A stretch of DNA of 32,000 bases from Candidatus Saccharimonadota bacterium (lineage in GTDB: Bacteria > Patescibacteriota > Gracilibacteria > BD1-5 > UBA6164): assembly GCA_965227835.1 (NCBI GenBank), contig OZ245768.1, positions 990,001 through 1,022,000 on the forward strand, given 5' to 3'. A program made the position numbers and the translations under genes. Position 1 is the stretch's first letter, and every line of letters begins with the position of its first letter. Shown in pieces: positions 4,272 to 30,009 of the stretch. The notes beneath the pieces are model-generated. The model did no database searches, was not told the DNA's origin, and saw only the letters and a program-made list of their open reading frames with translations.

Positions 4272-4282
4272 AGATTTTTTTA

Positions 4283-6228: not shown

Positions 6229-7095
6229 ATATATATCTTCAGTCTCTTTTTCCCATTTCTCTATTCAATCTCTCCGGTCTCTTAACATCTCATAAAAATT
6301 ATCAAAATCTATCTTTATATCTTCTTTGTATAATCATATTACCCATATAAAATCTAAATGTTTCTTTGAAACTTTAAATCTTATCATACCTATATAAAAT
6401 TCAACTACATTTTTATCTCATTCTTTTACATCCTCTAATAATGAAATTATTTCTTGTATGTATAATAGGGATATGTCTTTCATATTTGTTACTATTTCAC
6501 AATAAAAACCTGTATGTGGATCCATTATATAACTGTCATTCTGCATACTATGAGATTTAAAGCCTAAATCTGGTTTTTGATTTTCATAATGAACTATTGC
6601 ATAGTCAATATGAAATATTTCAGGGGGTATCCATATATCTCCATCATATGATTCATTATATATAGATCTCTTACAAAAAGGTCATCCTTTTGTCTTTCAT
6701 GTCTCTTTTTCCCAAGCGTCTATATAGTCACTCCAATCTCTCATCATATGTAAAATATCTTCTATTTTTAAGTCTGTTACTATATAATCATCTGCATAAT
6801 TGTATGTAATAGTTACCTCAGAGTTAGGGTACTTTTCTCCATAATATCATTTTCATTTTTGATAACACCAAATTAATGTAGTTTCAAATCAAAATATAAA
6901 CTTCTCTCTCCTTCATTGACTCACTTCTTCAAGTTTACTTACTATCTCTCGAATGTCATATGATCATAGCTGGTTTAGTTCTGTATTTAATAAATAGGGA
7001 TCGTTACTTTCTTTCTCTTTTCAAATTCAATCTACCTTAATTTGAATAAATGGATTAACATTTGTTACAAAATAGTATTCAATTTTATTTAACAT
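6214..7095 (-). CDS. Putative cognate immunity protein of the EndoU-like orphan toxin (copy A, 293 aa)
   Basis: ATG at 7095, 5 nt after the toxin stop. Starts MLNKIEYYFVTNVNPFIQIKVDGIGKEK and ends ...DFDNFYEMLRDRRDGIEKWEKETEDIYKQYK*. No signal peptide. The immunity role is inferred from position only. Confidence 0.55.
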
Positions 7096-7100
7096 AATTT

Positions 7101-8776: not shown

Positions 8777-8984
8777 ATATTTTATTTAATATATAATTAT
8801 AATTTTTAAAATATTTATAATATCCGCTTACTCTTTTTCAATATTTGATAGCTTTTTCGTCACATTCTCATCATTTTTTTACACAAGAAGGTCACCCATT
8901 CCAAGCTTTTCATATATTTTCTGCCGTTATTTCTTTTCACTCTTCTAATATTTTTCCCTTTATTACATTGATCCTATAATTCAT
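8769..8984 (-). CDS. Small hypothetical protein (71 aa)
   Basis: ATG at 8984. Reads MNYRINVIKGKILEEGKEITAENIGKAWNGGPSCVKKGGECDEKAIKYGKRVSGYYKYFKNYNYILNKIYE*. It overlaps both neighbours by a few nt and has no recognisable family. Confidence 0.35.
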
Positions 8985-9588
8985 TATCTTCAAATATAAA
9001 TCTAGGACTTTTTTTTAAATCTAATAGAATTTCTTGTTGTTCTTTTGGGAGATTTTTTAATTCATTTAGTGAATAAAAATTCATTATATCTTGTGTCAAA
9101 ATTCAAAATTGTTTTAGGTCTTCAAAGGTTTCGGGAGTGTTATATTTTTTTCACATAATATAATAAAATCAAGCATAGTAGATTCTTGAATTTTTAGACA
9201 TAGAAAAAAATTCTTCTCATACTGAAATTGTATTATAATCTAAATTGAAATAATATTCATCATATATATATATATATATATAATCTCCTTTATTAAAGGC
9301 TCATTTTAAATGCCAAGATAAGCACTTTCTATTTTCAGAGTTACATATAGAGTTATAACGTTCAACAGGATCAAGTCAAAATCATGGAATAATTCTTTCT
9401 CATATATGATATTTTCATATTTTTGAATATAATGTATCTATGTACATATTCTTTTCTAATTCTCGGTAATATTGTTCATCTTTATGTGATATATAATAAT
9501 ATCAAGCCAATAAAAATAAGGAAAATAAACATATTAATATTACAAATAATCTATTTAGCATTAAAGTAATTTTATTTATATCAAACAT
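8974..9588 (-). CDS. Hypothetical single-pass membrane protein (204 aa), cassette B; paralog of 3699..4271
   Basis: ATG at 9588. Starts MFDINKITLMLNRLFVILICLFSLFLLAGYYY (TM helix), continues ...GDYIYIYIYDEYYF... and ends ...TPETFEDLKQFGILTQDIMNFYSLNELKNLPKEQQEILLDLKKSPRFIFEDNEL*. Length is a multiple of 3. Confidence 0.55.
9262..9282. repeat. (AT)10 microsatellite inside a coding region
   Basis: A 21-nt perfect AT/TA run that encodes YIYIYIY in 8974..9588. The paralogous site at about 3950-3975 has an interrupted version. Confidence 0.8.
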
Positions 9589-9591
9589 ATT

Positions 9592-10206
9592 TTAATAAAT
9601 TTTTTCTAAAATTTCTAAATTCCAAAAATATGTTTTTCAATATCATATTTCTTCATAATAGCTTCACCATGAATTTAAAATATCTTTTAATAATCATTTA
9701 TATCATTGATTAGGACTATATGTAGGTATAAAATCATATTTATCTGTGATAAAAATTTTCATATAAACTCAACTATCATCAACAACTGGTTCCATAGTCC
9801 AAGTAACATGTCAAAATGAAAAATATAAGTCCCAATTTCTAGTAGAGTTTTCTGAGTCCTCAATTAAAACTCATTTTTCTATTTCATCTCAATTAAAGGA
9901 ATTATTTTTATAGAAATTTTCAAACTCTTGTTCTCTAATATTATACCAACTAGTTTTCTTAACTTCTTTTGTAATCCAGTGATAATTTCAATATTCTAAC
10001 TTACTACCATCTCAATATATGAACTTTGCAAGCATAGCTGACGATATTTTTAAATTCAATCATTTTCAAGCTATTCATACCAAATTTAACATTATGGTAG
10101 CTGAAACTTTTTTATGTGACTGGTCTAAATAATACCAATAACTATTTCAAGCTATTTTTATATCTCAACTATCATTAGCTAATCAAATATTATTATTATA
10201 AATTTT
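9592..10206 (-). CDS. Hypothetical protein, open frame with no ATG near its 5' end; paralog of 4283..4918
   Basis: Reads KIYNNNIGLANDSGDIKIAGNSYWYYLDQSHKK...YGDGSKLEYGNYHWITKEVKKTSWYN...YDFIPTYSPNQGYKGLLKDILNSWGSYYEEIGYGKTYFWNLEILEKIY*. The stop lies 3 nt before the next ATG. Confidence 0.4.
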
Positions 10207-10338: not shown

Positions 10339-10554
10339 CTTAAATCTACCCAGTTTTTTGTATTTTATAGTTTATTTTTTACCTTTATATAAGTAAAAAC
10401 AGAGATTTTATATTGATTGAATTTTATAAAGATAAAGTTAGCTTAAATAAGTCATTTATAAAATACTAAAGATAAAACACTAAAAATAGCTTAATTTCCC
10501 TTTATTTAAAGTAAAATATAGGTATACTTTTTATAAAAAGTGGGTAGTTTTGAG
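10339..10554. mobile_element. MITE-like non-autonomous insertion (216 bp)
   Basis: It is absent from the identical copy, where the empty site is aataataaaaatatgatt at ~5041-5058. Imperfect terminal inverted repeats are cttaaatctaccca and tgggtagttttgag. It is flanked by a direct taaaaa at 10333-10338 and 10555-10560. It contains no ORF. Confidence 0.6.
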
Positions 10555-10594: not shown

Positions 10595-10861
10595 TTATTT
10601 AATTAGCTCCTTTATTTCTATAGTAAAATTATAAGTTTCTCCATCCAATTCAGTTTCATGGTAATATCACATTGAATTTAATGATTCAATTATCTTTCTA
10701 TAGTCTATGATGTTATTTGAATATTCAGCTTCTTTTGGAAAGTTATATAAATCTGATAATCTTAATACGCTATATAGTTTTCAGTCTTCAGATTTATATA
10801 GATATCTTTGAACCCATATATTGTGTATTGAAAAAAACAAATCAAATTCAAATTCTGATAA
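10595..10861 (-). CDS. Small open frame (about 88 codons, no ATG; possible TTG start); intact only in cassette B
   Basis: Reads ...FFSIHNIWVQRYLYKSEDGKLYSVLRLSDLYNFPKEAEYSNNIIDYRKIIESLNSMGYYHETELDGETYNFTIEIKELIK*. The cassette A copy is split by the IS200 insertion between ...RKII and ESL.... It is in frame with the upstream remnant, separated by a single TAA. Confidence 0.3.
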
Positions 10862-11120
10862 TTAGAAACTCATACTTTCTTTGATTTTTTCTCACTTTTC
10901 ATTCAACTTATAATCCGTAATATCAATCTTCTCTCCTTTTTTAATATTATAATTCTTATATTCTTCTAGTATACTATTTCTTTTATTTTCATATTCTTCT
11001 TTTAGATCATATAGTTCTTTTTTTATTCTTTTTCTTTTTCATCGTATTTTTTCCATTTCCGTATCAATTTGACTTGACTCAAAGATTCTGTGTATCTCGT
11101 TGAGTTTATTTGTATTGTTT
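10862..11120 (-). pseudogene. Nested toxin-linker remnant (copy B)
   Basis: Identical to 5970..6228 at an offset of 4892, including the same internal TAA. Confidence 0.45.
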
Positions 11121-11987
11121 ATATATATCTTCAGTCTCTTTTTCCCATTTCTCTATTCAATCTCTCCGGTCTCTTAACATCTCATAAAAATTATCAAAAT
11201 CTATCTTTATATCTTCTTTGTATAATCATATTACCCATATAAAATCTAAATGTTTCTTTGAAACTTTAAATCTTATCATACCTATATAAAATTCAACTAC
11301 ATTTTTATCTCATTCTTTTACATCCTCTAATAATGAAATTATTTCTTGTATGTATAATAGGGATATGTCTTTCATATTTGTTACTATTTCACAATAAAAA
11401 CCTGTATGTGGATCCATTATATAACTGTCATTCTGCATACTATGAGATTTAAAGCCTAAATCTGGTTTTTGATTTTCATAATGAACTATTGCATAGTCAA
11501 TATGAAATATTTCAGGGGGTATCCATATATCTCCATCATATGATTCATTATATATAGATCTCTTACAAAAAGGTCATCCTTTTGTCTTTCATGTCTCTTT
11601 TTCCCAAGCGTCTATATAGTCACTCCAATCTCTCATCATATGTAAAATATCTTCTATTTTTAAGTCTGTTACTATATAATCATCTGCATAATTGTATGTA
11701 ATAGTTACCTCAGAGTTAGGGTACTTTTCTCCATAATATCATTTTCATTTTTGATAACACCAAATTAATGTAGTTTCAAATCAAAATATAAACTTCTCTC
11801 TCCTTCATTGACTCACTTCTTCAAGTTTACTTACTATCTCTCGAATGTCATATGATCATAGCTGGTTTAGTTCTGTATTTAATAAATAGGGATCGTTACT
11901 TTCTTTCTCTTTTCAAATTCAATCTACCTTAATTTGAATAAATGGATTAACATTTGTTACAAAATAGTATTCAATTTTATTTAACAT
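11106..11987 (-). CDS. Putative cognate immunity protein of the EndoU-like orphan toxin (copy B)
   Basis: Same sequence as 6214..7095 at an offset of 4892. ATG lies 5 nt after the toxin stop. Confidence 0.55.
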
Positions 11988-11992
11988 AATTT

Positions 11993-13960
11993 TTAATCAA
12001 TAATAGGATAAAAAGTTCTTAATTCTTTTGTTCTCTCTATATATACAAACTCAATATTTATTCCATCAACTGTTGATGGTCACTTAAATATATTTAAACC
12101 TAGTCAGGTAGCATTTGGGTCTGCTAATCCCTTATTATTTTCTATTGCATAAGTTACTTCATCTATAATCTTTTGCTTACTCCAGCTATCTGGGAAAAAC
12201 GAAGAATTTCATACAGGTTTTCATCATTTTTTTGTTAAAGTATTATTATTTCCATAATCTATAACTACTTTTGCACTGTAAGGTTCATTCCAAGTATCAA
12301 TTGATTTGTCTATATTTTCTAATTTAGCTACTCATTGCTGGTTACTTTTATTATAATGAGTTATTGCCTTTTGAGAATGAACTCAGTTGAAAGTTCAGTC
12401 TGACTTAAACTTAATCTCTACAATATGATCTATCTTTCATTCTACTTTCTTCCTTACATCTTTCACATATTTTACTCATTTGAATGATTTTCGTATAAGT
12501 GATTGTTCTCGTACTTTCTTCAAAAACTTCCCCAAACTCAACTTATTCTTCATTTTCACTATATCTCCTATATCATCCAGTTTATATTCCTTAGCAATCT
12601 CTTTTGCTACTTCAAGTATCTCTTCAATCTTCATTCATAGCTCTTTTGATAATTTCTCTAGAGATTTATTTAATAATTCTCTTGCTCATAATCAGCTTCA
12701 TGCACCACTTGCTAATCATATTATTGTTAGAGTCTTTCAGAGTGTTCATAATTCATCACCTGTTATTGGATCTTTTCAGATAACTAGTGTTAATATATCA
12801 TATCACTCTCATACAATTGGGATTAGTGATACTATTATACTTGTTGTATTTCAATATTCTTCTTTTAGATCATATAGTTCTTTTTTTAATTCTTTTTCTT
12901 TCTCATCGTATTTTTTCCATTTCCGTATAAGTTTGACTTGACTCAAAAATTCTGTGTATCCTGTTGAGTTTATTTGTATTATTTCTTGTTTTGTTGGTTG
13001 TTCTTTTGTTTTTGATTCAATGTTTGCTATGGATGTATTATCATATCTTGCTATTAATCTTTCTTTGTAATAGGTGATTTTGTTATTTCTTTTTATGTAG
13101 GGTTTAAAATTATTACATATTTCACAATTTTGTTTTGAATATCATACTATATATATTCCATCTTCCCTTTTTTCTAGTTTTTGTCTTTTAATTTCTCAGT
13201 TTTTTGTTTGATATTCAACTCATACTTCTTCCAGAGTTTTTGGGTTTGTGTTTATTTTAAATTTAAATCCTCATATTATTTCATCTATTAGGTTTTCTAT
13301 GAAGTATTCTATTTCTATTAGATTTTTTTCTTCATTCGTGGTTTCTTTGGTATTTTCATTTTTTCCCTCTTCATCACTATCTTTTCAACTCTCAAGATTC
13401 TCTCATCATAACACTTTCAATAAAACACTTTCCTTATTTCATTCTCTATCTTCCATTCATATTATAACTTCTCATACTTCTATAGCCTTTATCTCAATAT
13501 AGTTTGTTTCAAAATAATTTACTGGGTTGCTACTATACTTTTTATATAATAATGCCTTATTATTAGTCTTGGTTAATTGTATGTGTCAGTTACTTTCATA
13601 TATTGGAAGTAGATATTTTTCTCAGATTTCTAGTTCTAATTCTTTATCTCTTTGAGAGATTACTAGATTTGTGTCTTTTATTTCAACTTCTATTTTTGCT
13701 TCTTGTCCGTATTTATCAAATATCTTTGCTTTGGTTTCTCATTTCTTTTTTCCTTTGATTTTTATTTCTCAGTCTTTGTCTACATCAAAATATATTATTT
13801 CTTCGTTGTATTCTCAATTTTTGTATCATCATCATCAGTCTAGTATTTTTCATTGGTATTTCTCATTTTCTTTTAATACTACTTTGTTTTTGTCTAACTT
13901 TATTTTAGGGGTTTTGTCTTTTATCTTTACTTTGAATTTAATCCGTTTCAAACATCTTTT
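11993..13960 (-). CDS. Orphan toxin module B: two Ig-like repeats, junction segment, PT-TG-like domain and EndoU-like nuclease; no start codon
   Basis: A stop-to-stop frame of 655 codons that opens directly after TAA 13961-13963. It begins ...KVKIKDKTPKIKLDKNKVVLKENEKYQGKILDGGGGYKNGEYNEEIIYFDVDKDGEIKIKGKKKGETKAKIF.... This stretch is near-identical DNA to 20820-21280 of the full-length toxin. From 13267 down it matches module A. Confidence 0.7.
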
Positions 13961-14017
13961 TTAAGTTCCAAAATTACTTAATGTTTATACCCAGCTTCTC
14001 TCACTTGTGTATCACTA

Positions 14018-14554
14018 CTATGAAAATCTCTCAAGGTTATTCATTCTTTTCAATCTCGTTTTTTTAACGATCCCAGTCATTTTCGTATAAAGTAAATAAT
14101 ACTCACAGCATTTCAAAACTCTCTCTCTAGTATCATCAAAAGAAAGCCATTCTCTCTTTATATCCTCTATAGCTTGCTTTGATTCTTCTTGTGTATATTC
14201 TTTTGATTTTACTAATTTATATTCTTTTAAATTTTCTCAATCTTTTTCTAATTCATGATATAATATTTTTATTTTCAATTTCCCATCTCTGAGTAAAGGA
14301 TAGAGATAGTCTAGGGTAAGGTCTAGTTGTTTTTCTCTATTGTATTTAATCTTTTCATACTCTTTATCTGTTATATTTTCTCACCAAAATTCATTTAATC
14401 ATACTGAATATTTATTTTCATATAAATCATAAACTACTACTGCTCTTCTTTCCTTGAATGAAAATCAGTCGCATATTCAATGTCTATCTATTATTTCATT
14501 TCAGTATCAATCTTTCGGAATTATTAGTCAATTAGTGTAAGCTTTTTTTAACAT
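14018..14554 (-). CDS. Array paralog 1 (putative immunity protein, 178 aa)
   Basis: Starts MLKKAYTNGLIIPKDGYGNEIIDRHGICDGFSFKERRAVVVYDLYENKYSVGLNEFW (N-type a). Contains ...LDLTLDYLYPLLRDGKLKIKILYHELEKDGENLKEYKLV... (short middle). (CT)5 at 14119-14128. Ends ...YYLLYTKMTGIVKKTRLKRMNNLERFS* inside the conserved box. Confidence 0.65.
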
Positions 14555-14566
14555 ATTAAAATATTT

Positions 14567-15235
14567 CTATTTAGGTAATAAAAATTTTATCTCACTAGGT
14601 CAATCTATTCATCATTCTTTCAATAAATCCATAGTAACTTCATGTCTATACCCAGCTTCTCTCACCTGCTTATCACTACTGTGAAAATCTCTCAAGGTTA
14701 TTCATTGCTTTCAGTTTCGTTTTTTTAACAATCCCATTCGTTTTCGTATAAAGTAAATAATACTCAACACATCTCAAAACTCTCTCTCTCTAGTATCTTT
14801 AATAGAAAGCCATTTTTTCTTAATATCTTCTATTACTTTTTGAGACTCTTTTTTAGTATACTCTGTATCATAAATCCAAGCTCAATCCCAATTAGAGTCC
14901 TGTAAGGAATTTTCAAAGTATTGCCTCCACCAATCATTAAGAGGGTTCTGTAATTCTTTTTTTAAATCTTTCTTAGTTTTTAAAAGTTTTTTAGTTTTTA
15001 CTTTCAACTTTCCATCTCTGAGTAAAGGATAGAGATAGTCTAGGGTAAGGTCTAGTTGTTTTTCTTCTGGTATTCTATTATATGTTCCTTTCGGCATATC
15101 ACATAACCAAAATTCATTTAATCATTTTGAATATTTATTTTCATATAAATCATATAAAAAATATTCTATTCATTCTTTATCTGTAAATCACTCTGTTATT
15201 CAATATATATCTTTTATGTCTTTTATTTTTTTCAT
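14567..15235 (-). CDS. Array paralog 2 (222 aa), frame-shifted into the toxin-tail frame
   Basis: Starts MKKIKDIKDIYGITEGFTDKEGIEYFLYDLYENKYSKGLNEFW (N-type b), with the long middle segment (track ORF 14882..15097 is part of it). (CT)6 at 14780-14791 makes the ORF continue as ...GITLRDFHSSDKQVREAGYRHEVTMDLLKEGGIDGPSEIKFLLPK*. Confidence 0.6.
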
Positions 15236-15369
15236 AATTCTATTGATTAGGAAGTAAAAACTTTATTTCAATCCCTTCTCATCTTAATTTTTGTAGTTTT
15301 CAATCTTTCCACTTCAACAAATCTATAGTAACTTCATGCTTAAACCCAGCATCATTCACTTGCTTATCA

Positions 15370-15975
15370 CTACTGTGAAAATCTCTCAAGGTTATTCACT
15401 CTTTTCAATCTCGTTTTTTTAACGATCCCATTCATTTTCATATAAAGTAAATAATACTCAAGACATCTCAAAACTCTCTCTCTAGTATCTTTAATAGAAA
15501 GCCATTTTTTCTTAATATCTTCTATTGCTTTTTGAGACTCTTTTTTAGTATACTCTGTATCATAAATCCAAGCTCAATCCCAATTAGAGTCCTGTAAGGA
15601 ATTTTCAAAGTATTGCCTCCACCAATCATTAAGAGGGTTCTGTAATTCTTTTTTTAAATCTTTCTTAGTTTTTAAAAGTTTTTTAGTTTTTACTTTCAAC
15701 TTTCCATCTCTTAATAAGGGATATAAATATACCAATGTAAGATCTAGTTGTTTTTCTCTATCATCTTTAATCTTTTCCCATTCTTCACCTGTTATATTTT
15801 CTCACCAAAATTCATTTAATCATACTGAATATTTATTTTCATATAAATCATAAACTACTACTGCTCTTCTTTCCTTGAATGAAAATCAGTCGCATATTCA
15901 ATGTCTATCTATTATTTCATTTCAGTATCAATCTTTCGGAATTATTAGTCAATTAGTGTAGGCTTTTTTTAACAT
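15370..15975 (-). CDS. Array paralog 3 (201 aa)
   Basis: N-type a (MLKKAYTNG...), long middle (...KVKTKKLLKTKKDLKKELQNPLNDWWRQYFENSLQDSNWDGAWIYDTEYTKKESQKAIEDIKKKWLSIKD). (CT)5 at 15474-15483. Ends ...NNLERFSQ*. Confidence 0.65.
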
Positions 15976-16096
15976 ATTAAAATATTTCTATTTAGGTAAT
16001 AAAAATTTTATCTCACTAGGTCAATCTATTCATCATTCTTTCAACAAATCTATAGTAACTTCATGCTTAAACCCAGCATCATTCACTTGCTTATCA

Positions 16097-16588
16097 CTAC
16101 TGTGAAAATCTCTCAAGGTTATTCATTGATTTCAGTTTCGTTTTTTTAACGATCCCATTCGTTTTCGTATAAAGTAAATAATACTCAACACATCTCAAAA
16201 CTCTCTCTATAGTATCATCAAAAGAAAGCCATTCTCTCTTTATATCCTCTATAGCTTGCTTTGATTCTTCTTGTGTATATTCTTTTGATTTTACTAATTT
16301 ATATTCTTTTAAATTTTCTCAATCTTTTTCTAATTCATGATATAATATTTTTATTTTCAATTTCCCATCTCTGAGTAAAGGATAGAGATAGTCTAAAGTT
16401 AACAATAATGCTTCTTCTTCTGATATTCTATTATATGTTCCTTTCGACATATCACATAACCAAAATTCATTTAATCATTTTGAATATTTATTTTCATATA
16501 AATCATATAAAAAATATTCTATTCATTCTTTATCTGTAAATCACTCTGTTATTCAATATATATCTTTTATGTCTTTTATTTTTTTCAT
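16097..16588 (-). CDS. Array paralog 4 (163 aa)
   Basis: N-type b (MKKIKDIKDIYG...), short middle. (CT)4AT at 16201-16210, which has the same length as (CT)5. Ends ...NNLERFSQ*. Confidence 0.65.
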
Positions 16589-16757
16589 AATTCTATTGAT
16601 TAGGAAGTAAAAACTTTATTTCAATCCCTTCTCATCTTAATTTTTGTAGTTTTCAATCTTTCCACTTCAATAAATCCATAGTAACTTCATGTCTATACCC
16701 AGCTTCTCTCACTTGTGTATCACTACTATGAAAGTCTCTCAAGGTTATTCATTGATT

Positions 16758-17315
16758 TTAGTTTCGTTTTTTAACGATCCCAGTCATTTTCGTATAAAGT
16801 AAATAATACTCAAGACATCTCAAAACTCTCTCTCTAGTATCTTTAATAGAAAGCCATTTTTTCTTAATATCTTCTATTACTTTTTGAGACTCTTTTTTAG
16901 TATACTCTGTATCATAAATCCAAGCTCAATCCCAATTAGAGTCCTGTAAGGAATTTTCAAAGTATTGCCTCCACCAATCATTAAGAGGGTTCTGTAATTC
17001 TTTTCTTAAATCTTTCTTAGTTTTTAAAAGTTTTTTAGTTTTTACTTTCAACTTTCCATCTCTTAGTAAAGGATAGAGATAGTCTAGGGTAATGTCTAGT
17101 TGTTGTTCTCTATTATCTTTTATTTTCTCCCATTCCTCTTGAGTTATGGTACTATTCATAAAATAATTTAGTCACACCGACTGTTTATTCCAATACAAAT
17201 CATAAATAGTTACAATCTTACCATTTTCCTCATCCACAGAAAATCAATCACAAATACCATAAATATCTTTGATTCTTTCTTTTTCTAAAAATTTTTTAAA
17301 GTTATTATCCTCCAT
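16758..17315 (-). CDS. Array paralog 5 (185 aa)
   Basis: Starts MEDNNFKKFLEKERIKDIYGICDGFSVDEENGKIVTIYDLYWNKQSVGLNYF (N-type d), long middle (contains track ORF 16926..17159). (CT)5 at 16826-16835. A T6 rather than T7 run gives the earlier end ...GIVKKRN*. Confidence 0.65.
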
Positions 17316-17479
17316 AACACATATTATTGTTTAGGTAATATAAATTTTACTTCTTTTACCTTTCCAAATTCTCACTTATTGTTTGTCTTCAACAAATCCA
17401 TAGTAACTTCATGTCTATACCCAGCTTCTCTCACCTGCTTATCACTACTGTGAAAATCTCTCAAGGTTATTCATTGATT

Positions 17480-18049
17480 TTAGTTTCGTTTTTTAACGAT
17501 CCCAGTCATTTTCGTATAAAGTAAATAATACTCACAGCATTTCAAAACTCTCTCTCTAGTATCTTTAATAGAAAGCCATTTTTTCTTAATATCTTCTATT
17601 ACTTTTTGAGACTCTTTTTTAGTATACTCTGTATCATAAATCCAAGCTCAATCCCAATTAGAGTCCTGTAAGGAATTTTCAAAGTATTGCCTCCACCAAT
17701 CATTAAGAGGGTTCTGTAATTCTTTTCTTAAATCTTTCTTAGTTTTTAAAAGTTTTTTAGTTTTCACTTTCAATTTCCCATCTCTGAGTAAAGGATAGAG
17801 ATAGTCTAGGGTAATGTCTAGTTGTTTTTCTCTATTATATTTAATCTTTTCATACTCTTTATCTGTTATATTTTCTCACCAAAATTCATTTAATCATACT
17901 GAATATTTATTTTCATATAAATCATAAACTACTACTGCTCTTCTTTCCTTGAATGAAAATCAGTCGCATATTCAATGTCTATCTATTATTTCATTTCAGT
18001 ATCAATCTTTCGGAATTATTAGTCAATTAGTGTAAGCTTTTTTTAACAT
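17480..18049 (-). CDS. Array paralog 6 (189 aa)
   Basis: N-type a, long middle. (CT)5 at 17548-17557. T6 run, so it ends ...GIVKKRN*. Confidence 0.65.
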
Positions 18050-18205
18050 ATTAAAATATTTCTATTTAGGTAATAAAAATTTTATCTCACTAGGTCAATC
18101 TATTCATCATTCTTTCAATAAATCCATAGTAACTTCATGTCTATACCCAGCTTCTCTCACCTGCTTATCACTACTGTGAAAATCTCTCAAGGTTATTCAT
18201 TGATT

Positions 18206-18757
18206 TTAGTTTCGTTTTTTAACGATCCCAGTCATTTTCGTATAAAGTAAATAATACTCAAGACATCTCAAAACTCTCTCTCTAGTATCTTTAATAGAAA
18301 GCCATTTTTTCTTAATATCTTCTATTACTTTTTGAGACTCTTTTTTAGTATACTCTGTATCATAAATCCAAGCTCAATCCCAATTAGAGTCCTGTAAGGA
18401 ATTTTCAAAGTATTGCCTCCACCAATCATTAAGAGGGTTCTGTAATTCTTTTCTTAAATCTTTCTTAGTTTTTAAAAGTTTTTTAGTTTTCACTTTCAAT
18501 TTCCCATCTCTGAGTAAAGGATAGAGATAGTCTAGGGTAATGTCTAGTTGTTTTTCTCTATTATATTTAATCTTTTCATACTCTTTATCTGTTATATTTT
18601 CTCACCAAAATTCATTTAATCATACTGAATATTTATTATAGTATAACCTATATACAGTAACAATGATTCTATCTTTATCTGTGAATCAAGAACATATACC
18701 ATGAAAATCTTTTATTCACTTTTTTTCTAAAAATTCATTCAATTCATTATCTATCAT
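18206..18757 (-). CDS. Array paralog 7 (183 aa)
   Basis: Starts MIDNELNEFLEKKGIKDFHGICSGFTDKDRIIVTVYRLYYNKYSVGLNEFW (N-type c), long middle. (CT)5 at 18274-18283. Ends ...GIVKKRN*. Confidence 0.65.
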
Positions 18758-18934
18758 AATTCTATTTGTTAGGAAGTAAAAATTTCACCTCCTTTTCAAT
18801 TGGTTTTAACTCTCACTTATTGTTTGTCTTCAACAAATCCATAGTAACTTCATGCTTAAACCCAGCTTCTCTCATTTGTGTATCACTACTGTGAAAATCT
18901 CTCAAGGTTATTCATTCTTTTCAGTTTCGTTTTT

Positions 18935-19411
18935 TTAACGATCCCATTCATTTTCATATAAAGTAAATAATACTCAACACATCTCAAAACTCTCTCTCTC
19001 TCTAGTATCATCAAAAGAAAGCCATTCTCTCTTTATATCCTCTATAGCTTGCTTTGATTCTTCTTGTGTATATTCTTTTGATTTTACTAATTTATATTCT
19101 TTTAAATTTTCTCAATCTTTTTCTAATTCATGATATAATATTTTTATTTTCAATTTTCCATCTCTGAGTAAAGGATAGAGATAGTCTAGGGTAATGTCTA
19201 GTTGTTGTTCTCTATTGTCTTTAATCTTTTCCCTTTCTTCATCTGTTATATTTTCTCACCAAAATTCATTAAGTCATATTGAATATTTATTATAGTATAA
19301 CCTATATACAGTAACAATGATTCTGTCTTTATCTGTGAATCAAGAACATACACCATGAAAATCTTTTATTCACTTTTTTTCTAAAAATTCATTCAATTCA
19401 TTATTTATCAT
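18935..19411 (-). CDS. Array paralog 8 (158 aa), immediately downstream of the full-length toxin
   Basis: ATG at 19411, 4 nt after the toxin stop. Starts MINNELNEFLEKKGIKDFHGVCSGF (N-type c), short middle. (CT)7 at 18990-19003 puts the 3' end in the third frame, ending ...RERESFEMCGVLFTLYENEWDR*. Confidence 0.6.
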
Positions 19412-19415
19412 AATT

Positions 19416-22400
19416 CTATTTGTTAGGAAGTAAAAATTTCACCTCCTTTTCAATTGGTTTTAACTCTCAATTATTGTTTGTCTTCAACAAATCTATAGTA
19501 ACTTCATGCTTAAACCCAGCATCTCTCACTTGTGTATCACTACTATGAAAATCTCTCAAAGTTATTCATTCTTTTCAATCTGGAGATGTATACCTATAAA
19601 CACTTCATTTATTTGATGGCTTTTTTTCTCACTTCCACCCCTTAGTTTCTAAACTTTTCATTACACCTTCAACTCCTTCCTTATCTCACAATACCTTCAC
19701 TGCTCATCATTCTAATCATTTAACCTTATCTAATCAATCGACCTTTTCTAAATCCTGAGCCACTTTTAATATATCATCAACTCAAGTTATATCCTTAAAT
19801 TTACTTGCTATAAATCAAGACCTTCATGTAGACCTTACCCTCTTCACAACCCTCTCACTACTCTTAGCTCATTTCAGTTTTCCGGGTCATACAAACATCA
19901 AACTAGAACTCACTCATACATATCATTCTATCCATTGTATATTATAGGATGTAAGATATTCTTTATAACCCTCATACTCATTATATACTTCCTCTATTTG
20001 ATTATATAATTCTCATAATCATTCTTTCGCTTTCTCCCAATCTTCTTCTGCTGTTCTTTCTCAAGTTATATATCCATATAGTATTTTTCAGCTTCATTTT
20101 AACAAATTTATTATATCTTTTGGGGTATCTTGTAATTCTTCTATCGTGTCTTTTATTGCTTCTTTACTTCAATCTATATATCATTGATTATCTGTTTTTA
20201 TTTCTCTTATCTTCTTTTTTATATTATAGAATTTTTCTTTTGTTTCTTCTACATATTCTTGTACTCAGCTTATTTCTAGGTTTTCTTCTTTGTTTTTAGT
20301 ATTTGTAGTTCTTATTCTATTATCTGCAAATGAGAGGTATGTATTGGTGTTATAGTATGTTGTAGTATTGTTTGTGTCTATGAAGTATGGTTGAAATTCG
20401 TTGTAACAGTTTATACATATTTCTTTGTCTAATCAGAGTATATATATTCAGTCTTCTTCTTTTTCTAGTTTTTCTCTTACATGATTTCAATTTTCTCATT
20501 TGTATTGTATTCATATTTCTTTTAGGGTTTCTGGGTTTCAAGTTATTTCAAAGTATAGGCTTGATAGTCAATCAATACTTGTATTTGATGAATATTGGAG
20601 GTTAGTGAATTTTGAGGTTTGAGGTTCTTCTCAGTTACTTTCATTTCACTCTTTTTCATTATCTTCTATTTCTTCTTCATTATTCTCATCTCATTTCTCC
20701 TCCTCTCCTTCTCACTTATCTTCTCATCATAACACTCTCAATAACACACTTTCCTTATTTCATTCCCTATCTTCCATTCATATTATAACTTCTCATACTT
20801 CTATAGCCTTTATCTCAATATAGTTTGTTTCAAAATAATTTACTGGATTGCTACTATACTTTTTATATAATAATGCCTTATTATTAGTCTTGGTTAATTG
20901 TATGTGTCAGTTACTTTCATATATTGGAAGTAGATATTTTTCTCAGATTTCTAGTTCTAATTCTTTATCTCTTTGAGAGATTACTAGATTTGTGTCTTTT
21001 ATTTCAACTTCTATTTTTGCTTCTTGTCCGTATTTATCAAATATCTTTGCTTTGGTTTCTCATTTCTTTTTTCCTTTGATTTTTATTTCTCAGTCTTTGT
21101 CTACATCAAAATATATTATTTCTTCGTTGTATTCTCAATTTTTGTATCATCATCATCAGTCTAGTATTTTTCATTGGTATTTCTCATTTTCTTTTAATAC
21201 TACTTTGTTTTCTTTTAATTTTATTTTGGGGGTTTTGTCTTTTATCTTTACTTTGACTATGCTTATTATATCTCAACTTTGATATATATATAGTTCTGTT
21301 TCTCATTTGGTTTTTCATATTATAGAGAATTTTTCATAATTAGTTCTTTTCCCGTTTTCCCATATTCTTTGTTTACTTATTTGTATTATTTCCGGATTTG
21401 TTGTTGAGAATGTATAGTCTTTATTTATTTCTTGTTTGAATGATTCGCATGTTATTCATATTGGTACTTCGCATTCATATGTTCTTGGGGGTTTAGGTTT
21501 TATTGTTATTTCTAGTATGTGGCTTATGTAGTCTCAATCATAGGATTTTACATATATATTTGAAGTTCAGCTTAGTTTTCATTCTAGTTTTATTTTATTT
21601 TTTGTTCAGTTTATTTCTATTATGTTGGGTCTTGAATTGTTATAATAGTATCATCTGTTTTCTATTTTAAATAAGCAACTTTTTCATACTTCTGTTTCAC
21701 ATTTGTGTATTCTTGGGTTTGGAACTGGTTTTACTTTTACATTCCATATTTTCCTTAGTCATTTTCAACTTTTGTATATCTTTATTTTTGTTGTTCAGGC
21801 TTTTTTTCAGCATATTCAGTTTATTTTTTCCGTTTCTCAAGCTACTCTTTTTTTTATTCACCATTCAACACTAGCTATACCACTATTATCTGGCTTAAAG
21901 TTATAATCATCTCTATACCATGTTTTTATACAATCTGTTTCATTTAGGGTAAAATTTTCCTCACTTGCTTTGGATATTATTTTTATTTCATATCTTGGCC
22001 ATTTCCTTCAATCTTTTTCATTTATGTATATTGTTGATTCTCAAATTTTATCAGGATCTATATACACTGTATCCTTTCATACTCTAAGTCTGTAATCAAA
22101 TAATCATAAATTATCTGATTTTATGTCATAGTTGTCTACATTTTCTGGTAATATTAATTTTTGGGTGGCTCATACCTCCATTTCTATTTTGTATTTTTTA
22201 AATGGGGGTTTAGGTATTATTGTTATTTTATAGGTCTTTTTATTTCTTCATAAGGAATCTTTTACATAAATTTCTGTTTCTCATCATACTTGTCATCTTA
22301 TGTATGTTTTTTTATCATGAGGTCTTCTTTTTATACTAGTAAAATGGTTATTACTGGTTATTTTGTGTCAAGGTGAAATATATTCTAGTATTTCATCTCA

Positions 22401-25400
22401 TTGATAAATTGTTCTTGTTTCTATTTCTGGAGGATCTGTTATTATATTTATATCTAATATGTGCCTGACTACTCAATCACCACCTGATAAGTAATATTTT
22501 ATCTTTCAAAATAGGTTTCATCTAAATTTCATTACTTTAAAATAATGATTGTATTCAAGTTTAGACATTGATTTTACACTATGTTCTCACTCAACTGAAT
22601 AGCTGTAATATGTGTTACCTATTCAATATATATTTATATATGTTCATTCTTTTATGTTTAGAGTATGGATTTTTGGTTCTGGTAAGGGTATTATTTTTAC
22701 TTTATGATTAGCAACATGATATCACCTAGTTTTCACATATAATTCTAATTCTCAATCCTTTTTTCATGTAATACAATAACCTTTTTCATATATTTCTAAT
22801 TCAGCTAATTCTTCATTATTCGTGGAATATTCAGTTTCTATTCATACTTCTATACATTTCCTCTTTGAATTATATACCTCAAATACTTTTTCTTCTATTT
22901 TTGGATGCACCATTATATCTATAGTATATAGATGTATATTTTGATCATATACTCTATATCTTACTTTTCAGGGGGTTTTTCATAAAAGTTTTATATCCCA
23001 ATTTTTTTGATGTGTTTCTATTTCTCAACCATCTAGCCTGTCATAATAAAATTTAAGATCCCTTCAATTAGTTTTAACTACTAAATCAGAGTATTCTCAT
23101 TGTTTAATATTTAAATCATATTGTATTACCTCAGGGGCTGGTTTTATTATTAGTTTAATTATATATTTATTTGATACTCTTATATATGCTGTTCATATTT
23201 CTTTTGCTCTTATTGTGAAATCGCGATATCCCTTAGATAAATCTACCAAACTATTACTCGATATAGAGTAATTTTCGCTGTAAGCTTTTTTTAGGTATCT
23301 TTTGTATGCTTGTCATTTATAAATTTCTATTTCAAATGTAGGTGGAGGAGTTATGGTAAGCTTTAATATATATTGTAAATATCAATTTTTATCTGATACT
23401 TTAATATTTACAGTTCAAACTTTTTTTGCACTTAAAATATATTGATCCTCTCTAGTTCAAATACTTATTATATCATTATTAGATACTTCATATTTATGGT
23501 TTCGAGCATTTTTTAGATTTACTATTGAATTCTTTCATTCTTGTAATGAAATATTTTTAATTTCTACAGGTTTTATGTTTAACTTTAGAGTATATATATG
23601 TATATTTTGTCTATTTTTAATTTTTACATACAAAGTTCCAACTTTTTTTGTAAGTAAATGATAATAGTCACCTCCTTTAGAAAAACTAGCTAAGCTCCTA
23701 TCCGATAATTCATATCTATATATCCAAGTAGCCGGTAATTTCTCAGAGTGTTTTTTTCAAACATTGATGCTTCTATCAAAAACAGGAATTCATTTTATAC
23801 TAAGACTGACTTTATGATCTGTATGGCTACGACGAGGATCTGTTATTTTTATAGTAACATTTCAAGCTTTTCTAGCATATATACGAAATGACCTTCTTAT
23901 TTTTTTTATTTCTACTAAACTAGGATTTGATACTTGAATTCTTTTGTATGAATGAACAAAATAATAATTTCAAACTGTTATACTTTTATATTTAGTAGGA
24001 AGGTATCTATTTATACTAATTCAATCTGTTTGCTCTTCTTGAAATGTTTCAGGTTCTATAATTAATTCCTCTCATAAATCATCGTTTTCTTCTAACATAT
24101 CTCCATTTTCTTCTTTTATTTTTTCATTTTCTTCAAACTCTTTTATGTATAATTCTTTTTCTTGATTTTTATCTTCTAGATTATCTTCTCAAAGACTGTT
24201 TATTTCTATATTTCATGTTTCATCATTTAAAAAACTATTTTTCTCTATTTCTTCTAACTCTTCTTGACTTATAATTCATGGTTTTATTTCTTCTACTTCA
24301 TTTCGTTTCATTAATTCTTCTAGCTCTTCTTCACTTAATTCTAACTCATAGTTACTCTTAGAACCATCAGAAAAATTATTTATTTCAAGTCAGCCATCCT
24401 CGTAATTTTCTATAATTTCTATTTCTTCTTTTTTTATCTCTCATATTTCTGAATTGTTATTTTTAAGATAATCTAGCATTTCTTTTTCTTCTTCACTGCT
24501 CAATTTTTCTTCGTCTTGATTATCTTTTTCATTTATTTTTTCAAATTTGAGGAACTCTATACTACTTTTTTCATCATTTCAAATATTTTCATCTAAATTA
24601 TTTATTTTTATTCAATTTTCCTCTTCTATAATCAACTCCTTATCATAAAAGTCATTTATTCTCTCTAGTTTTACTTCTTTGTTTTCTAGCTTTTCTCATA
24701 ATTCTAAACCTCATGAAAAACCATTTATAATCTCATTTGGATTATAATTTTTTACTTCTAACTCTTGGAAGTTTTCTTCTGTGTATAAACCATTATTTTC
24801 TCAAGTATTATTTATCTCTAGTCATTTTTCTGCTCAATCTATATACAATTCTTTTGTATGTTTCAATTCATCTATTTTTTCTTCTATTTCAATTTCCACA
24901 TTTTTAAATCATTCTAAACCTAGTTCTTCTTCATTTATTTCTAGTTTTTCTTCCTTTTTTCATAGCTCATATTCTTCTAAAAACAAATCTTTAAGATCTT
25001 GTTTTTGATTATTATTTATTTCTACTCATTTCTCTGCTCAATCTATATACAATTCTTGCATTTTATTTTCAAGCTCAGGAGAATTTTCTAAAAAAGTTTT
25101 TTCTTCTATTTCTTCATTCTCATAAAAATCTTGAGATATATCTTTATAGTTAAAATCCTTTCACACAGGTATTCAGTGCGTTATTTTTTCACTATTTAAT
25201 TCAGTATTTCAAATATCATTTATTTCTATATTTTTTATTTCTACATTTTCATCAAAATACCTGTCTCAAAAAATACCATCAAATTTCTTTGATTCTTCTT
25301 TTATTAGTTCTAATTTTTCTAATTCTCCATATGTAAATATAGATTTATTTTCTTTGTAATTTTGATTTATTTCTAAATTTTCCTTAGAGTTTAAAAAATT

Positions 25401-27518
25401 TAGTAAAATTGGATTTAGTTTTGTATTTTCAGATTCTTGTGTAGCTTCATTTTCTTCTATTTTTTGTTCTGTATCTTCTTTTTTTTCTTCAAGAAATTTA
25501 CTACTTTCTATTAACTCTATTTTTTCAACTATTAAAGCATCATCTTTATTTTCCTGTAAATTATCTCCTTTTCCTTCCTCTATCTTCCCTTCTTCCACTT
25601 TTTCTTCAGTCTCTTGTTCTTGCTTAATTTCATCACTAATTTCTTCCTTATCTTCTTCTTTTTTAATTTCATTTTCTTTACCTTTATTCTCCTCTAATTC
25701 ACTTTTCTTTTCTTCTATTCCATTTTCAACTGTTTCTTCACTTTCAACTTTCAACTTTTCCCTTTCAACTAAGCTTAATTCTAGTGAAGATATTATTTGA
25801 TTTAAGCTGGCAAATTTGGAAATTGGTTTATTTGACTCTGTTATAATACTTGTAGAATTTTCTTGCAATATTTGCCTAGCTTGTTTTGTTGTAAGATTTG
25901 GTTTGTAGCTTTTTATTATTGATATTAATCATACTATATGAGGAGTAGCCATGCTTGTTCAGCTTAATCTCCTATAGTTTCATTTATTTGTTGGGAATGT
26001 TGAATATATTGATACTCATGGAGCATTTATATCTACTTTGTCTCAATAATTTGAGAAACTTGCTCTGGTATTACTTTCATCTATTGCTGCTACTGATATT
26101 GTTTCCTCGCATCATCATGGAATATAGTTTCTTGTATCAGTATTTCAGTTTCAACTAGCTGATACAATTATTTTTCAGTTTCTAGTTGCTGATTTTATTC
26201 AATCACATATTGGATTACTGTTAGGATTTCATCTTCATCAAAGACTCATATTTACTATATCTATATCATTTTCTTTTATATATTCTAGTGCCTTTATTAC
26301 TGCATAATTTGGACAAAATCAATTCTTATCACATATTTTTAGTGGAATTATTTTACTGTAGGGATTTATTCAAAGTATTCATTTTCAATCTAATTTTGAT
26401 GATATTGTTCAAGCTATATGAGTTCAGTGTCATTGGTCATCCTGAGTGTCTTTTTCTGGATTTATAAAATTTTGTCATTTTAGAACCTGTCATTTTAGAT
26501 CTGGGTGATTTGAATCTATTCAAGTATCTATTATGGCTATTTTTATTTTTTTATTATTTTGTTTTTGATAAATTTCTGTTTGTTTTTCTAGTTTTAAAAG
26601 GTAGTTTATAGGATTATATTTTCTTATACCCCATGTTTTTTCCAAATTTTCCAAACCTAGTTTATTTTGAATTTCTTTATTTCTTTTTAAAAATTCTTCA
26701 TCTTTTTCTAACACTCTTCATATATCCTTCTCTCCTTTAAGGAGAGGGGCTAGGGGTGAGGTCTCCTCAGATTGAGTCGGGAGTGATGATTGTTCAGACT
26801 TGGACGAACTTTGGTTTATAGAATATATTTCTGGTTTTACTATTTTTATATTTAAAAAATTTTCTGGAATTTTTCATATTTCTATTTGTCATAATATCTC
26901 TTCTACAAATATTCAACTTTCTGGTAGTGTTATCTCATAATATTTTTGTTTTCAATTATTATAAAGGTAATTTATCTTGGTTTTTTCTTCGAATTTTTCA
27001 AAAATATTTTTTACATGATTTTTATTTTTGTTTGTTTCTACTATAAGTGTATAGTTTTTTTCTTGCTTTAGCGAATTTTTCAGTGTATCATAAGCTTGTT
27101 TTTTCTTTCTTAGACTTGGTGCTATATCCTCATCTATTCAGCTTGATAATTTAGTATCTTTACTAAGACTTGATACAGCTTTTAAAACAACTTTCTTTCT
27201 TGTATCTTGGGCTATTTTATTGATGTTTTTTGTACTTTTTTCTTTCTGTATTTGTTCTTGAGCTTCCTCTAAAGTCTCTTTTATTTCTTCTTTTTTTTCT
27301 TCTAGTTTTTCTTGCAACTCTTCATCTTTTATTACATCTTCCATTTTATCAGTTGCTTTTTCTAAGACTTTTTCTACTTTTTCTAGAAATTTTTCTGTTT
27401 TTTGCCTAGTTTGCTCTATTTGAGCTTTTTCTGATTGAACAGATGCATAAATTATTTGTATGTTGGTATTTCATAAAAGAAATACCAATAAAAGAAGTTT
27501 GCATATTGTTTTTTGCAT
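19416..27518 (-). CDS. Giant secreted polymorphic-toxin protein (2700 aa): signal peptide, S8 subtilisin-like protease, acidic repeats, about 13 Ig-like repeats, PT-TG-like linker, HicA-like C-terminal domain
   Basis: ATG at 27518 gives MQKTICKLLLLVFLLGNTNIQIIYASVQ. With TGA=Gly one frame runs to TAG 19416-19418 (8103 nt, a multiple of 3). Track ORFs 27138..27344, 26520..26714 and 25266..25868 all lie in this frame. I checked the frame at six internal anchor points. I saw no in-frame TAA or TAG during manual translation. Confidence 0.8.
19419..19668 (-). other. C-terminal toxin domain with a HicA/YcfA-like pattern
   Basis: Reads GVMKSLETKGWKGEKKPSNKGSVYRYTSPDGKEGITLRDFHSSDTQVRDAGFKHEVTIDLLKTNNNGELKPIEKEVKFLLPNK*. 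Compare the HicA pattern L..L...GW......GSH..Y.HP.G...T.P.H......GT...I...AGL. The canonical GSH His is Val here. The 19600-19900 stretch looks more G+C-rich than its surroundings. Confidence 0.35.
20830..24010 (-). repeat. About 13 tandem Ig-like (Big_2-type) repeats of about 85-95 aa within the giant CDS
   Basis: A recurring pattern of the type ...G.(T/V).(I/L)Y(V/I)K......Y.(I/L).(I/V).(I/V).P.P.... Examples are KGETELYIYQSGDIISIVKVKIKDKTP, VGTLYVKIKNRQNIHIYTLKLNIKP and GTSNIYVKSYDGDYISHILEITIKPKPP. Confidence 0.55.
24010..25800 (-). repeat. Acidic E/K-rich low-complexity region with reiterated ...G..(E/K)IN(N/S)... modules
   Basis: Examples are ELYIDGAEKGVEINNNQ, ELYIDGAEKGLEINNTGENNG, ENGIKINNLDENIGN, EDGGLEINNFSDGS, ETGNIEINSLGEDN and DIGNTELNSEK, embedded in Glu/Lys-rich spacers. 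Confidence 0.5.
25808..26591 (-). other. Peptidase S8 (subtilisin-like) domain of the giant CDS
   Basis: Catalytic triad motifs are KIAIIDTGIDSNHPDL (Asp codon 26526-26528), DDQGHGTHIAGTI (His codon 26427-26429) and LSGTSMATPHIVG (Ser codon 25953-25955). There is also VSASGNGN. Several of the motif Gly residues are TGA. Confidence 0.85.
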
Positions 27519-29900: not shown

Positions 29901-30009
29901 TTCTCGTTCAATTTTAATTTTTGATATTAATAGATTATATGATAAATTGCTTTTTTTCAATTTTAGTATAGCATATTAGAAATAAAATACATTTCTAAAT
30001 TTATAAAAA

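Follow-up and report, generated by a model that had tools for sequence, protein, structure and literature searches.

A candidate polymorphic-toxin locus with tandem toxin-tail and putative immunity-gene units in a code-25 Patescibacteria genome

Here, we describe a giant gene and the tandem gene array that follows it on the minus strand of contig OZ245768.1 (assembly GCA_965227835.1, positions 990,001 to 1,022,000; this whole stretch of 32,000 nucleotides (nt) is called the window). The array repeats a short, near-invariant piece of the giant gene's 3' end, the box, together with a variable tail and a small gene. From the letters of the window alone, an earlier reading, called here the original prediction, had proposed that the tails are alternative C-termini of a toxin encoded by the giant gene, each linked to its own putative immunity allele, and that the box is the recombination site through which they are exchanged. 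At the level of sequence, most of this interpretation held, and overall it is partly supported; we consider it likely that the window holds a polymorphic-toxin locus of code-25 Patescibacteria with two tiers of exchangeable cassettes. Polymorphic toxin systems are understood here as defined by Zhang, Aravind and colleagues in 2012.

The giant gene and its array

The window has a base composition of 25.7% GC. With TGA read as a stop, almost no long open reading frames (ORFs) are found in it, and with TGA read as sense the coding is dense. In an ABC ATPase gene (471-1139), TGA stands at the invariant glycines of the Walker A motif GPSGSGKST, of the signature LSGGEKQR and of DEPTGSLD, and the genetic code of the window is therefore code 25 (TGA = Gly), as in Patescibacteria; all translations were made with table 25. 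The predicted reading of the box as GITLRDFHSSD, which requires TGA = Gly, is thus correct. The giant gene is absent from table-11 ORF calls, and because such a locus is invisible to standard code-11 annotation, comparable systems are probably under-reported.

The giant gene (19416-27518, minus strand) encodes 2700 amino acids (aa) in an ORF that is open only with TGA as sense. Its product consists, in order, of a signal peptide, a Peptidase_S8 domain, beta-rich repeats, an acidic linker and a ~420-aa C-terminal module that ends in a ~95-aa putative toxin domain. Pfam matches were obtained for Peptidase_S8 (E=2.7e-53) and T2SS-T3SS_pil_N (E=4.6e-18), and the only hydrophobic stretch is an N-terminal signal-like segment, with no membrane anchor. 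By these features the product is a large protein, secreted or at the cell surface, whose N-terminus carries trafficking elements, as is typical of polymorphic toxins. A regular-expression search of the protein found no VENN, Rhs/YD-repeat (PxxxxDPxGL) or LPXTG motif, and Pfam gave no match to Rhs or filamentous-haemagglutinin families; for want of VENN and Rhs/YD motifs, membership of the CdiA or Rhs family was rejected. The gene ends in GITLRDFHSSD and 39 further codons, and the box encodes a conserved core strand of the C-terminal domain, GITLRDF here and GLTLRNF, KINLRGF or KINFRSF in relatives.

Behind this 3' end, the array consists of eight head-to-tail units, each made up of box, tail, stop, putative immunity gene and a 22-nt spacer. 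The 33-nt box was found at all nine predicted sites, all on the minus strand and with 0-1 mismatch (19568-19536, 18914-18882, 18199-18167, 17473-17441, 16751-16719, 16125-16093, 15398-15366, 14704-14672 and 14043-14011), and a match to it occurred in 0 of 100 shuffles (0 expected by chance). Box position 9 is T in both copies that lie in giant genes, that of the window and that of a second genome (L001, described below), and C in 11/11 orphan copies. Counted with the box, the tails of units 1 to 8 run for 50, 50, 45, 49, 52, 45, 52 and 45 codons to a TAG or TAA. As predicted, all eight complete copies stay open in the toxin frame, for 34-41 codons beyond the box, and stop shortly before the next ATG, at a distance of 4-12 nt rather than the 4-15 nt first given.

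Unit 1 (19416-19568) joins the expressed box (19568-19536) to tail type 1 (…KTNNNGELKPIEKEVKFLLPNK, then stop) and forms the 3' end of the giant gene. The orphan boxes with their tails, which likewise end in a stop, are unit 2 with type 1' (18762-18914, …KTNNKGELKPIEKEVKFLLPNK), unit 3 with type 2 (18062-18199, …KEGGIDGPSEIKFLLPK), unit 4 with type 3 (17324-17473, …KTNNKGEFGKVKEVKFILPKQ), unit 5 with type 4, which is the type expressed in L001 (16593-16751, …KWKDGKLQKLRGEGIEIKFLLPNQ), unit 6 with type 2 (15988-16125) and unit 7 with type 4 (15240-15398), all on the minus strand. The box and type 2 tail of unit 8 (14567-14704, minus) lie within a fusion ORF of array gene 7. The ninth copy (13978-14043, minus) had been described as cut off at the junction with a further module, orphan module B, and it does end there, 21 codons from the start of the box, after the box and 10 further codons (GITLRDFHSSDTQVREAGYKH, then stop).

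The array genes, all on the minus strand, encode 158-201 aa, or 222 aa in the fused gene 7. Gene 1 (18935-19411; MINNELNEF, short form, 158 aa) is the putative cognate immunity gene, and it is followed by gene 2 (18206-18757; MIDNELNEF, long form), gene 3 (17480-18049; MLKKAYTN, long), gene 4 (16758-17315; MEDNNF, long), gene 5 (16097-16588; MKKIKDIKD, short), gene 6 (15370-15975; MLKKAYTN, long), gene 7 (14567-15235; MKKIKDIKD, long) and gene 8 (14018-14554; MLKKAYTN, short). The long form is set apart by an insert of ~25 extra residues. Distant homologues are also split, P0010, P0016, P0019, P0020 and P0033 being long and P0014, P0017 and P0026 short (alignment A6), and therefore both forms are old and being reassorted. 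When 1.84 billion proteins were searched in full by HMMER with P0001, an L001 protein in which an array protein is naturally fused to a tail, only 24 cluster representatives matched, and the family shares the C-terminal motif RESFE..GV.FTL.ENEW. No known immunity family was found for the array protein in Pfam, and no hydrophobic segment or signal peptide was found in it. An AlphaFold2 model of the gene 1 product reached a pLDDT of 88 and a pTM of 0.82, with low confidence for the first 20 residues.

The array genes carry a short (AG)n tract: (AG)7 in gene 1 (19003-18990), (AG)5 in gene 2 (18283-18274), where the C-terminus is frameshifted, and also in gene 3 (17557-17548), gene 4 (16835-16826), gene 6 (15483-15474) and gene 8 (14128-14119), (AG)6 in gene 7 (14791-14780), and the tract ATAGAGAGAG in gene 5 (16210-16201), outside the native frame. 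The (AG)7, (AG)6 and (AG)5 tracts correspond to three frames while all eight ORFs are otherwise intact, and in this respect the tract is like that of a contingency locus. Gene 1 is the only array gene of the window with (AG)7 and the family-conserved C-terminus (RESFEMCGVLFTLYENEWDR, then stop). In gene 7, (AG)6 leads into the toxin frame, and the ORF continues through the spacer, box 8 and the type 2 tail (14704-14567) to give the 222-aa fusion, counted from the ATG. In L001, gene 1 has (AG)7 (about 9754-9767), gene 2, which is fused, has (AG)6 (about 10415-10426), and the native frame is kept in gene 3; the gene next to the toxin is thus in its native frame in both the window and L001. The tract resembles those of phase variation and may gate production of the native protein, although it could also be a frameshift that was copied along or, with lower probability, an error of assembly. 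In their native frame the array genes stop at a TAA ~22 nt before the box, which thus lies clear of the native gene end. An A-tract that starts in this TAA, in the spacer (18945-18951 and equivalents), comes as A7 in five units and as A6 in the three others, and it shifts the end of the frameshifted ORFs to …KKRN or, inside the box, to …MNNLERFSQ. A scan of the array for promoters and terminators gave promoter-like sites below shuffle expectation and no terminators.

Constraint, mosaicism and relatives of the units

The 18 codons after the box are moderately variable, and the last 16-23 are hypervariable except for a terminal E-[IV]-K-F-x-x-P. Openness of the toxin frame alone is weak evidence of translation, because, with just TAA and TAG as stops, another frame likewise runs without a stop for 30-35 codons over box and tail, and because copies of the same type are near-identical. 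Substitutions are more informative. Over the box and proximal tail, in a set of nine distinct sequences from the window and L001, the toxin frame has a pN/pS of 0.24, against 6.2 for frame +1 and 1.0 for frame +2, so that the frame-specific constraint proposed as a check is present. Ten of the 16 variable sites are third codon positions (P=0.016), the three variable sites within the box are all synonymous third positions, and in every whole-tail pairwise comparison, between the window and L001 and within the window, the change is most synonymous in the toxin frame. Between types, the hypervariable distal cores are too diverged for dN/dS and differ by indels. These types have different lengths (16-23 codons after DLLK), and all place E-[IV]-K-F-x-x-P in frame, as do six other loci with different codons. 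Given this in-frame motif despite substitutions, length changes and different codons, the four tail types diverged while being translated.

The four tail end types are paired with MI(N/D)NELNEF, MLKKAYTN, MEDNNF and MKKIKDIKD, and the claim that each end type precedes its own N-terminal type holds in 8/8 window units and in all three complete units of L001. The distal tail, the spacer and the initial ~70 codons of the following gene make up a single diverged block (alignment columns 110-330) of four types, with mean identity down to 44%, and the divergence peaks exactly at the toxin tip and the immunity N-terminus, with conserved DNA on both sides. Around this block the units group differently depending on whether the box, the proximal tail, the distal tail with the N-terminus, the middle, the long/short insert or the 3' end is considered: the box is uniform, and the 54-nt proximal tail exists in four variants that are shuffled against the distal types. 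The units are mosaics in which recombination has shuffled everything around the diverged block.

The shuffling of proximal against distal parts implies that crossovers also fall after the box. In a nine-unit alignment, the homology of the giant gene with the units begins ~12 nt before the box, at codons G-K-E, and extends over ~100 nt (the ~12 nt, the box and the 54-nt proximal tail), of which the box is just the best-conserved part. Two details of the original prediction therefore had to be given up, namely that the box is the special site of recombination and that the last ~40 residues are swapped, the part truly swapped being the last 16-23 residues. No integrase was seen near the array and no dyad symmetry of the box was obvious by eye, and on this evidence, which is not a rigorous test, site-specific recombination at the box was rejected in favour of homologous recombination. 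The only transposase gene is of the IS200 type and lies 8 kb from the array.

A relative of the locus was located through P0001 and lies on OZ245922.1, the 1.0-Mb chromosome of a Patescibacteria metagenome-assembled genome (MAG), here L001. An exact scan of genome contigs for the 33-nt box core matched, the window aside, only this chromosome, which carries four boxes and three complete units. Its giant gene (L001 1722-9371) encodes 2549 aa with an S8 domain. Over aa 1-2300, the two giant proteins share 14-60% identity per 100-aa window (mostly 16-33%, highest in the S8 domain), whereas their last 400 aa are 79-97% identical, and the GC content of L001 falls from ~37% in the flanks to 27% in the array. 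Together, these observations indicate that the C-terminal module and array were exchanged horizontally, probably recently and from a low-GC donor.

Upstream of the box, the two giant genes are 96.7% identical over 300 nt; the expressed boxes are identical, including T at position 9, and the proximal tails differ by one base. Thereafter the window continues with …KTNNNGELKPIEKEVKFLLPNK (KTNNNGELKP, type 1) and the MINNELNEF gene, and L001 with …KWKDGKLQKLRGEGSEIKFLLPNQ (KWKDGKLQ, type 4) and the MKKIKDIKD gene. The tail type expressed in L001 is that of orphan units 5 and 7 of the window, with 95.7% identity to unit 7 over 417 nt, and a single crossover between boxes 1 and 5 of the window would yield the L001 arrangement at the expression site. 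The giant gene has thus been found joined to another tail at the box, as had been suggested for a check, in a different organism and not in the same population. The proposal that the tails are alternative C-termini of the toxin-like protein, each in physical linkage with its own variant of the downstream gene, is supported. At its far end (11198-11290), the L001 array carries a truncated box and tail, in which …DAGFKHEV is followed by VHERENY and a stop, and there it meets a fragment (AGSGAGARELLNTSLEKLSKELGMKIE; 11257-12570) that is similar to the PT-TG region of orphan module B. The truncation point differs from that in the window, so the two array-end junctions are independent. A Transposase_mut gene lies just after the L001 array.

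Counting these two genomes, the C-terminal domain is directly followed by an array-family gene, with gaps of 3-7 nt, in six lineages (window, L001, L003, L006, L018 and L021). The toxin ends of the four others read …GKEGLTLRNFGSSD…SEIKFVFSK (L003), …GKEKINLRGFGSSD…DEIKFLFSN (L006/7), …DGKQRISYRE…KEIKFIKPK (L018) and …SEKINFRSFDSSED…SEIKFLEINE (L021), each before a stop. Units of box, tail and putative immunity gene occur in at least two more distant lineages. In L022, an orphan box-like sequence and tail (KNRMNGTEKINVRK…KELKFITPK, then stop) stand between two tandem family genes, and in L008-10 another such pair (KILEKINIRDF…GEIKFVLPNE, then stop) stands directly upstream of an orphan family gene. 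These units have the same left boundary as those of the window, with family proteins that are only ~34-37% identical. The island of L008/9 holds a family member and a Barstar gene downstream of another C-terminal domain. Shorter remnants were found in L015 (~30 codons) and in L013 (8 codons fused to an EndoU fragment), the latter locus having been added by a locus search with a 4-sequence alignment.

A higher tier, missed by the original prediction, involves whole C-termini. Orphan module B (11993-13960, minus) is an ATG-less copy of the pre-C-terminal region of the giant gene that leads into a C-terminus with PT-TG (E=6.3e-9) and an EndoU nuclease (EndoU_bacteria, E=1.3e-14; both Pfam). Its positions 13401-13935 match the giant gene at 20722-21256 (minus) over 535 nt at 98.3% identity, after which the two diverge, and this giant-gene segment could serve as an upstream anchor for replacement of the whole C-terminus. 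A putative EndoU immunity gene (11106-12083, minus; a 326-codon open frame, 293 aa from the ATG) has no Pfam match. A second EndoU orphan with a copy of the downstream gene (5792-8375, minus) is 5'-truncated and 98.8% identical to 10683-13267 (2.6 kb). Whole ~420-aa C-terminal modules thus also appear to be exchangeable, and the window holds eight box-and-tail units and two EndoU orphans, all toxin-fragment and immunity cassettes homologous to the expressed gene. The pre-toxin sequence MVFGPGKLKATKSVDRIVNK… is common to L006 and L013 and continues into the present domain in L006 and into Colicin_D (E=8.8e-15) in L013, so that a shared pre-toxin sequence leads into unrelated C-termini both in the giant gene and orphan module B and in L006 and L013. 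The window and L001 have in common only the last ~400 aa. The EndoU continuation in orphan B and the Colicin_D continuation in L013 argue that the slot held by the giant protein's C-terminal domain is the toxin slot of a polymorphic toxin, as judged from context.

Interpretation and rival explanations

We propose that the giant gene encodes a toxin and that its downstream neighbour codes for a putative immunity protein of ~160 aa that stays in the cytoplasm. The ~100 nt of near-identity would support ordinary homologous recombination, whether as unequal crossover, as deletion, as gene conversion or when an excised unit circle re-integrates. Such events would bring to the expression site another distal tail and, along with it, the 5' half of the immunity gene next to that tail. 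They would also shuffle blocks among units, and would delete, duplicate or convert units. The divergence peak at the toxin tip and the immunity N-terminus has the look of a co-diversifying interface, and we infer that these parts may be the two sides of the contact between toxin and immunity protein, in which case a swap would change specificity and could carry adaptive value. In the second tier, the 535 nt of 98% identity upstream would serve the exchange of a whole ~420-aa C-terminus, such as that of the EndoU orphan. The recurring unit boundary would be explained if circles excised by recombination between two boxes re-inserted at boxes. A more specific version seems possible but is offered tentatively: a RecA-type system in two tiers in an ultra-small code-25 bacterium, in which, besides replacement of whole toxins, a ~20-residue tip recognised by the immunity protein is exchanged with its matching immunity N-terminus, the (AG)n tract chooses among units for native C-termini, and circles move much as in an integron without an integrase. 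If true, it would be the first polymorphic-toxin and kin-discrimination system described in Gracilibacteria/Absconditabacteria-type organisms; a literature search found no paper joining polymorphic toxins with Gracilibacteria or Absconditabacteria.

Several results weigh against our interpretation. All seven downstream array genes lie outside the family's native C-terminal frame (six through a 10-nt tract, one through (AG)6), and the array cassettes are not ready to use: with 7/8 array genes of the window frameshifted, a simple swap would put a C-terminally altered immunity gene beside the toxin. The pairing of tail and N-terminus is first of all physical linkage and needs no selection, because both lie in one DNA block, and the intactness of same-type copies says little, since they are near-identical (unit 3 equals unit 8 over box and tail, and identity is >=93% over the diverged block). 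The modelled gene 1 product matched no fold in the PDB (best E=0.38), which leaves synteny alone as the argument for immunity. The exact module is found in only two genomes, an exact box scan of metagenome contigs gave no match, and the evidence for a swap is the single case of the window and L001 (n=1). Among the relatives, L021 has tandem family genes without tails, and L003 and L006 have large orphan modules instead of units.

The C-terminal domain itself gave no significant match in Pfam, NCBIfam (where nothing was returned) or the PDB, where sequence and profile searches with the toxin domain yielded chance matches only (ankyrin and designed repeats). Database versions of the giant protein's C-terminus carry W at TGA codons, ~20 in a ~190-aa stretch and 5 in the final ~80-aa domain. 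DUF7028, for which a literature search found no paper, scored 23.5-24.8 bits (E=5.5e-5 and 2e-5) under a Pfam cutoff of 27, in the window and L001 only, and HicA (PF07927) scored 14.1 bits (E=0.05; cutoff 27); neither match was reproduced in the relatives L003, L006 and L018. The strand equivalent to that with the HicA catalytic His reads KGSVYRY or KGTVTTY, with GSVY at the His position. A HicA-like RNase identity was rejected, the match being sub-threshold and absent from relatives and the catalytic His (GSHH strand) missing.

Part of this evidence would fit a passive origin of the array, as a collection of useful extra immunity genes or an unstable tandem duplication, the earliest duplication having by chance taken in the last ~50 codons of the toxin. 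The orphan boxes and tails would then be functionless passengers, alike through recency and gene conversion, and a change of the expressed tail would be an accident of unequal crossing-over that leaves specificity untouched. Near-identical units of the same type, a pairing that is one contiguous block, and orphan array genes that are mostly frameshifted are all to be expected on this account, as are the tail-less tandems of L021 and remnants that follow no fixed length (~30 codons in L015 but 8 in L013), which could be debris of displacement. Both displacement and recombination of tandem paralogues are documented in other toxin systems (PMC5361080, PMC9484751). It is harder to reconcile with four tail types that differ by substitutions and in-frame length changes while keeping the terminal motif in frame, with an orphan type of the window being the expressed type in L001, with the same unit boundary in the distant L022 and L008 (proteins ~34-37% identical), and with a divergence peak lying exactly at the toxin tip and immunity N-terminus between conserved DNA. 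We therefore regard a passive array as unlikely.

The giant protein might alternatively be no toxin but a surface adhesin or protease with a variable tip, the array genes encoding tip-specific chaperones or assembly factors, and the whole resembling pilE/pilS variation in the host attachment of an epibiont. A C-terminal domain with no detectable toxin family or catalytic motif and an array protein fold with no PDB match would suit such a role, and members of this patescibacterial group are considered episymbionts or predators dependent on surface contact (PMC8080830). However, the same slot in paralogues and relatives holds EndoU or Colicin_D, with PT-TG upstream, a Barstar gene shares an island with one member of the family, and a secreted giant protein accompanied by array proteins that have no signal peptide is better matched by a cytoplasmic antidote, all of which makes this account quite improbable. 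Least probable is an artefact, with a metagenome assembler stringing strain variants of a single locus into a spurious array and sequencing errors accounting for the (AG)n and A6/A7 differences: the source is a MAG and the length of simple-repeat tracts is a classic error class, but the independent assembly OZ245922.1 of a different organism shows the same units, four boxes and the same (AG)7/(AG)6 pattern, tandem units recur in L022, and the unit junctions are regular and identical in structure.

Arrays of orphan toxin and immunity cassettes are known from other systems, and a locus of the kind we propose would be new in that its anchor lies within a small toxin domain and the exchanged piece is very small, and also in the uniformity of its units and in the host lineage. 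In known orphan cassettes (Rhs, CDI, Maf, T6SS/T7SS), the whole toxin domain is exchanged or only the immunity genes recombine. Rhs orphan modules are expressed by recombination in Salmonella (PMC3967940), and a model of Rhs C-terminal displacement has been put forward (cited in PMC5361080). On our interpretation, the locus would share with Rhs and CdiA orphans a constant secreted body, a replaceable C-terminal toxin and an immunity gene directly downstream, as well as ATG-less modules of C-terminus and immunity gene that keep a conserved stretch for recombination, which is exactly the form of EndoU orphan B. Unlike them, it has no YD repeats, PxxxxDPxGL or VENN, its body is an S8 protease and beta-repeat protein of a monoderm-like code-25 bacterium, and the array repeats only the last 45-52 codons of the toxin, with the anchor within the toxin domain.

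The T6SS immunity arrays of Vibrio cholerae, which arose as effectors were displaced one after another, also contain strings of orphan immunity genes downstream of the active effector and its immunity gene, sometimes with the shifted-back 3' end of an old effector, that move between strains by recombination, but they join unrelated immunity families through homology-facilitated illegitimate recombination (PMC5361080), whereas the window array has one family, the same unit boundaries and the same conserved box. In the EsaG/TipC immunity genes of T7SS toxins, which form tandems of non-identical paralogues within one family, recombination between conserved blocks leads to gain, loss and mosaicism, as in the block shuffling of the window; there, however, the blocks lie within immunity genes and no toxin fragment is reported in the repeat (PMC9484751), while in the window the block conserved best comes from the toxin-like gene itself, and recombination would rewrite the toxin as well. 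Neisseria MafB likewise has promoter-less alternative toxin 3' cassettes with their own immunity genes downstream of the expressed gene, but these encode whole unrelated toxin domains, whereas the window tails vary just the final ~20 residues of a single domain (PMC4287609 for MafB).

With a repeat boundary inside the toxin domain, a single crossover would give the toxin a new tip and at the same time exchange the front half of its antidote. If the tip determines specificity, the array would represent a compact natural experiment in co-diversification, with ~20 against ~60 residues and four natural allele pairs. E-group DNase colicins and their Im proteins combine one toxin fold with a short hypervariable specificity segment that co-diversifies with the adjacent immunity gene, and the window array would work alike. 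Colicin operons are not known to keep spare specificity segments in tandem, and their protein families are not related to those of the window. More broadly, our interpretation would place polymorphic-toxin warfare in code-25 Patescibacteria, horizontally exchanged between lineages of 26% and 37% GC.

Other genes of the window

Further pairs on the minus strand look like orphan toxin ends with immunity genes. Two ATG-less copies of a ~205-aa ORF (KIYNNNIGLANDSGDIKIAGN…; 9592-10206 and 4283-4918), with 73% DNA identity, are each followed by a gene for a ~200-aa protein with one N-terminal hydrophobic helix (8974-9591 and 3699-4292); these pairs have no Pfam match. Between the two EndoU orphan copies lies the IS200-type Y1 transposase gene (PF01797, E=9e-35; 5244-5693, minus).

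The flanking genes (30007-31320, plus; 28152-29975, minus; 471-3477, plus) resemble ordinary housekeeping or surface genes. They include a prepilin-like protein with the N-terminal motif FTFVELMIV, a radical-SAM/ELP3-like protein, identified by eye, and an ABC transporter ATPase and permease pair, and all are heavy users of TGA = Gly, with 2-32 TGA codons apiece.

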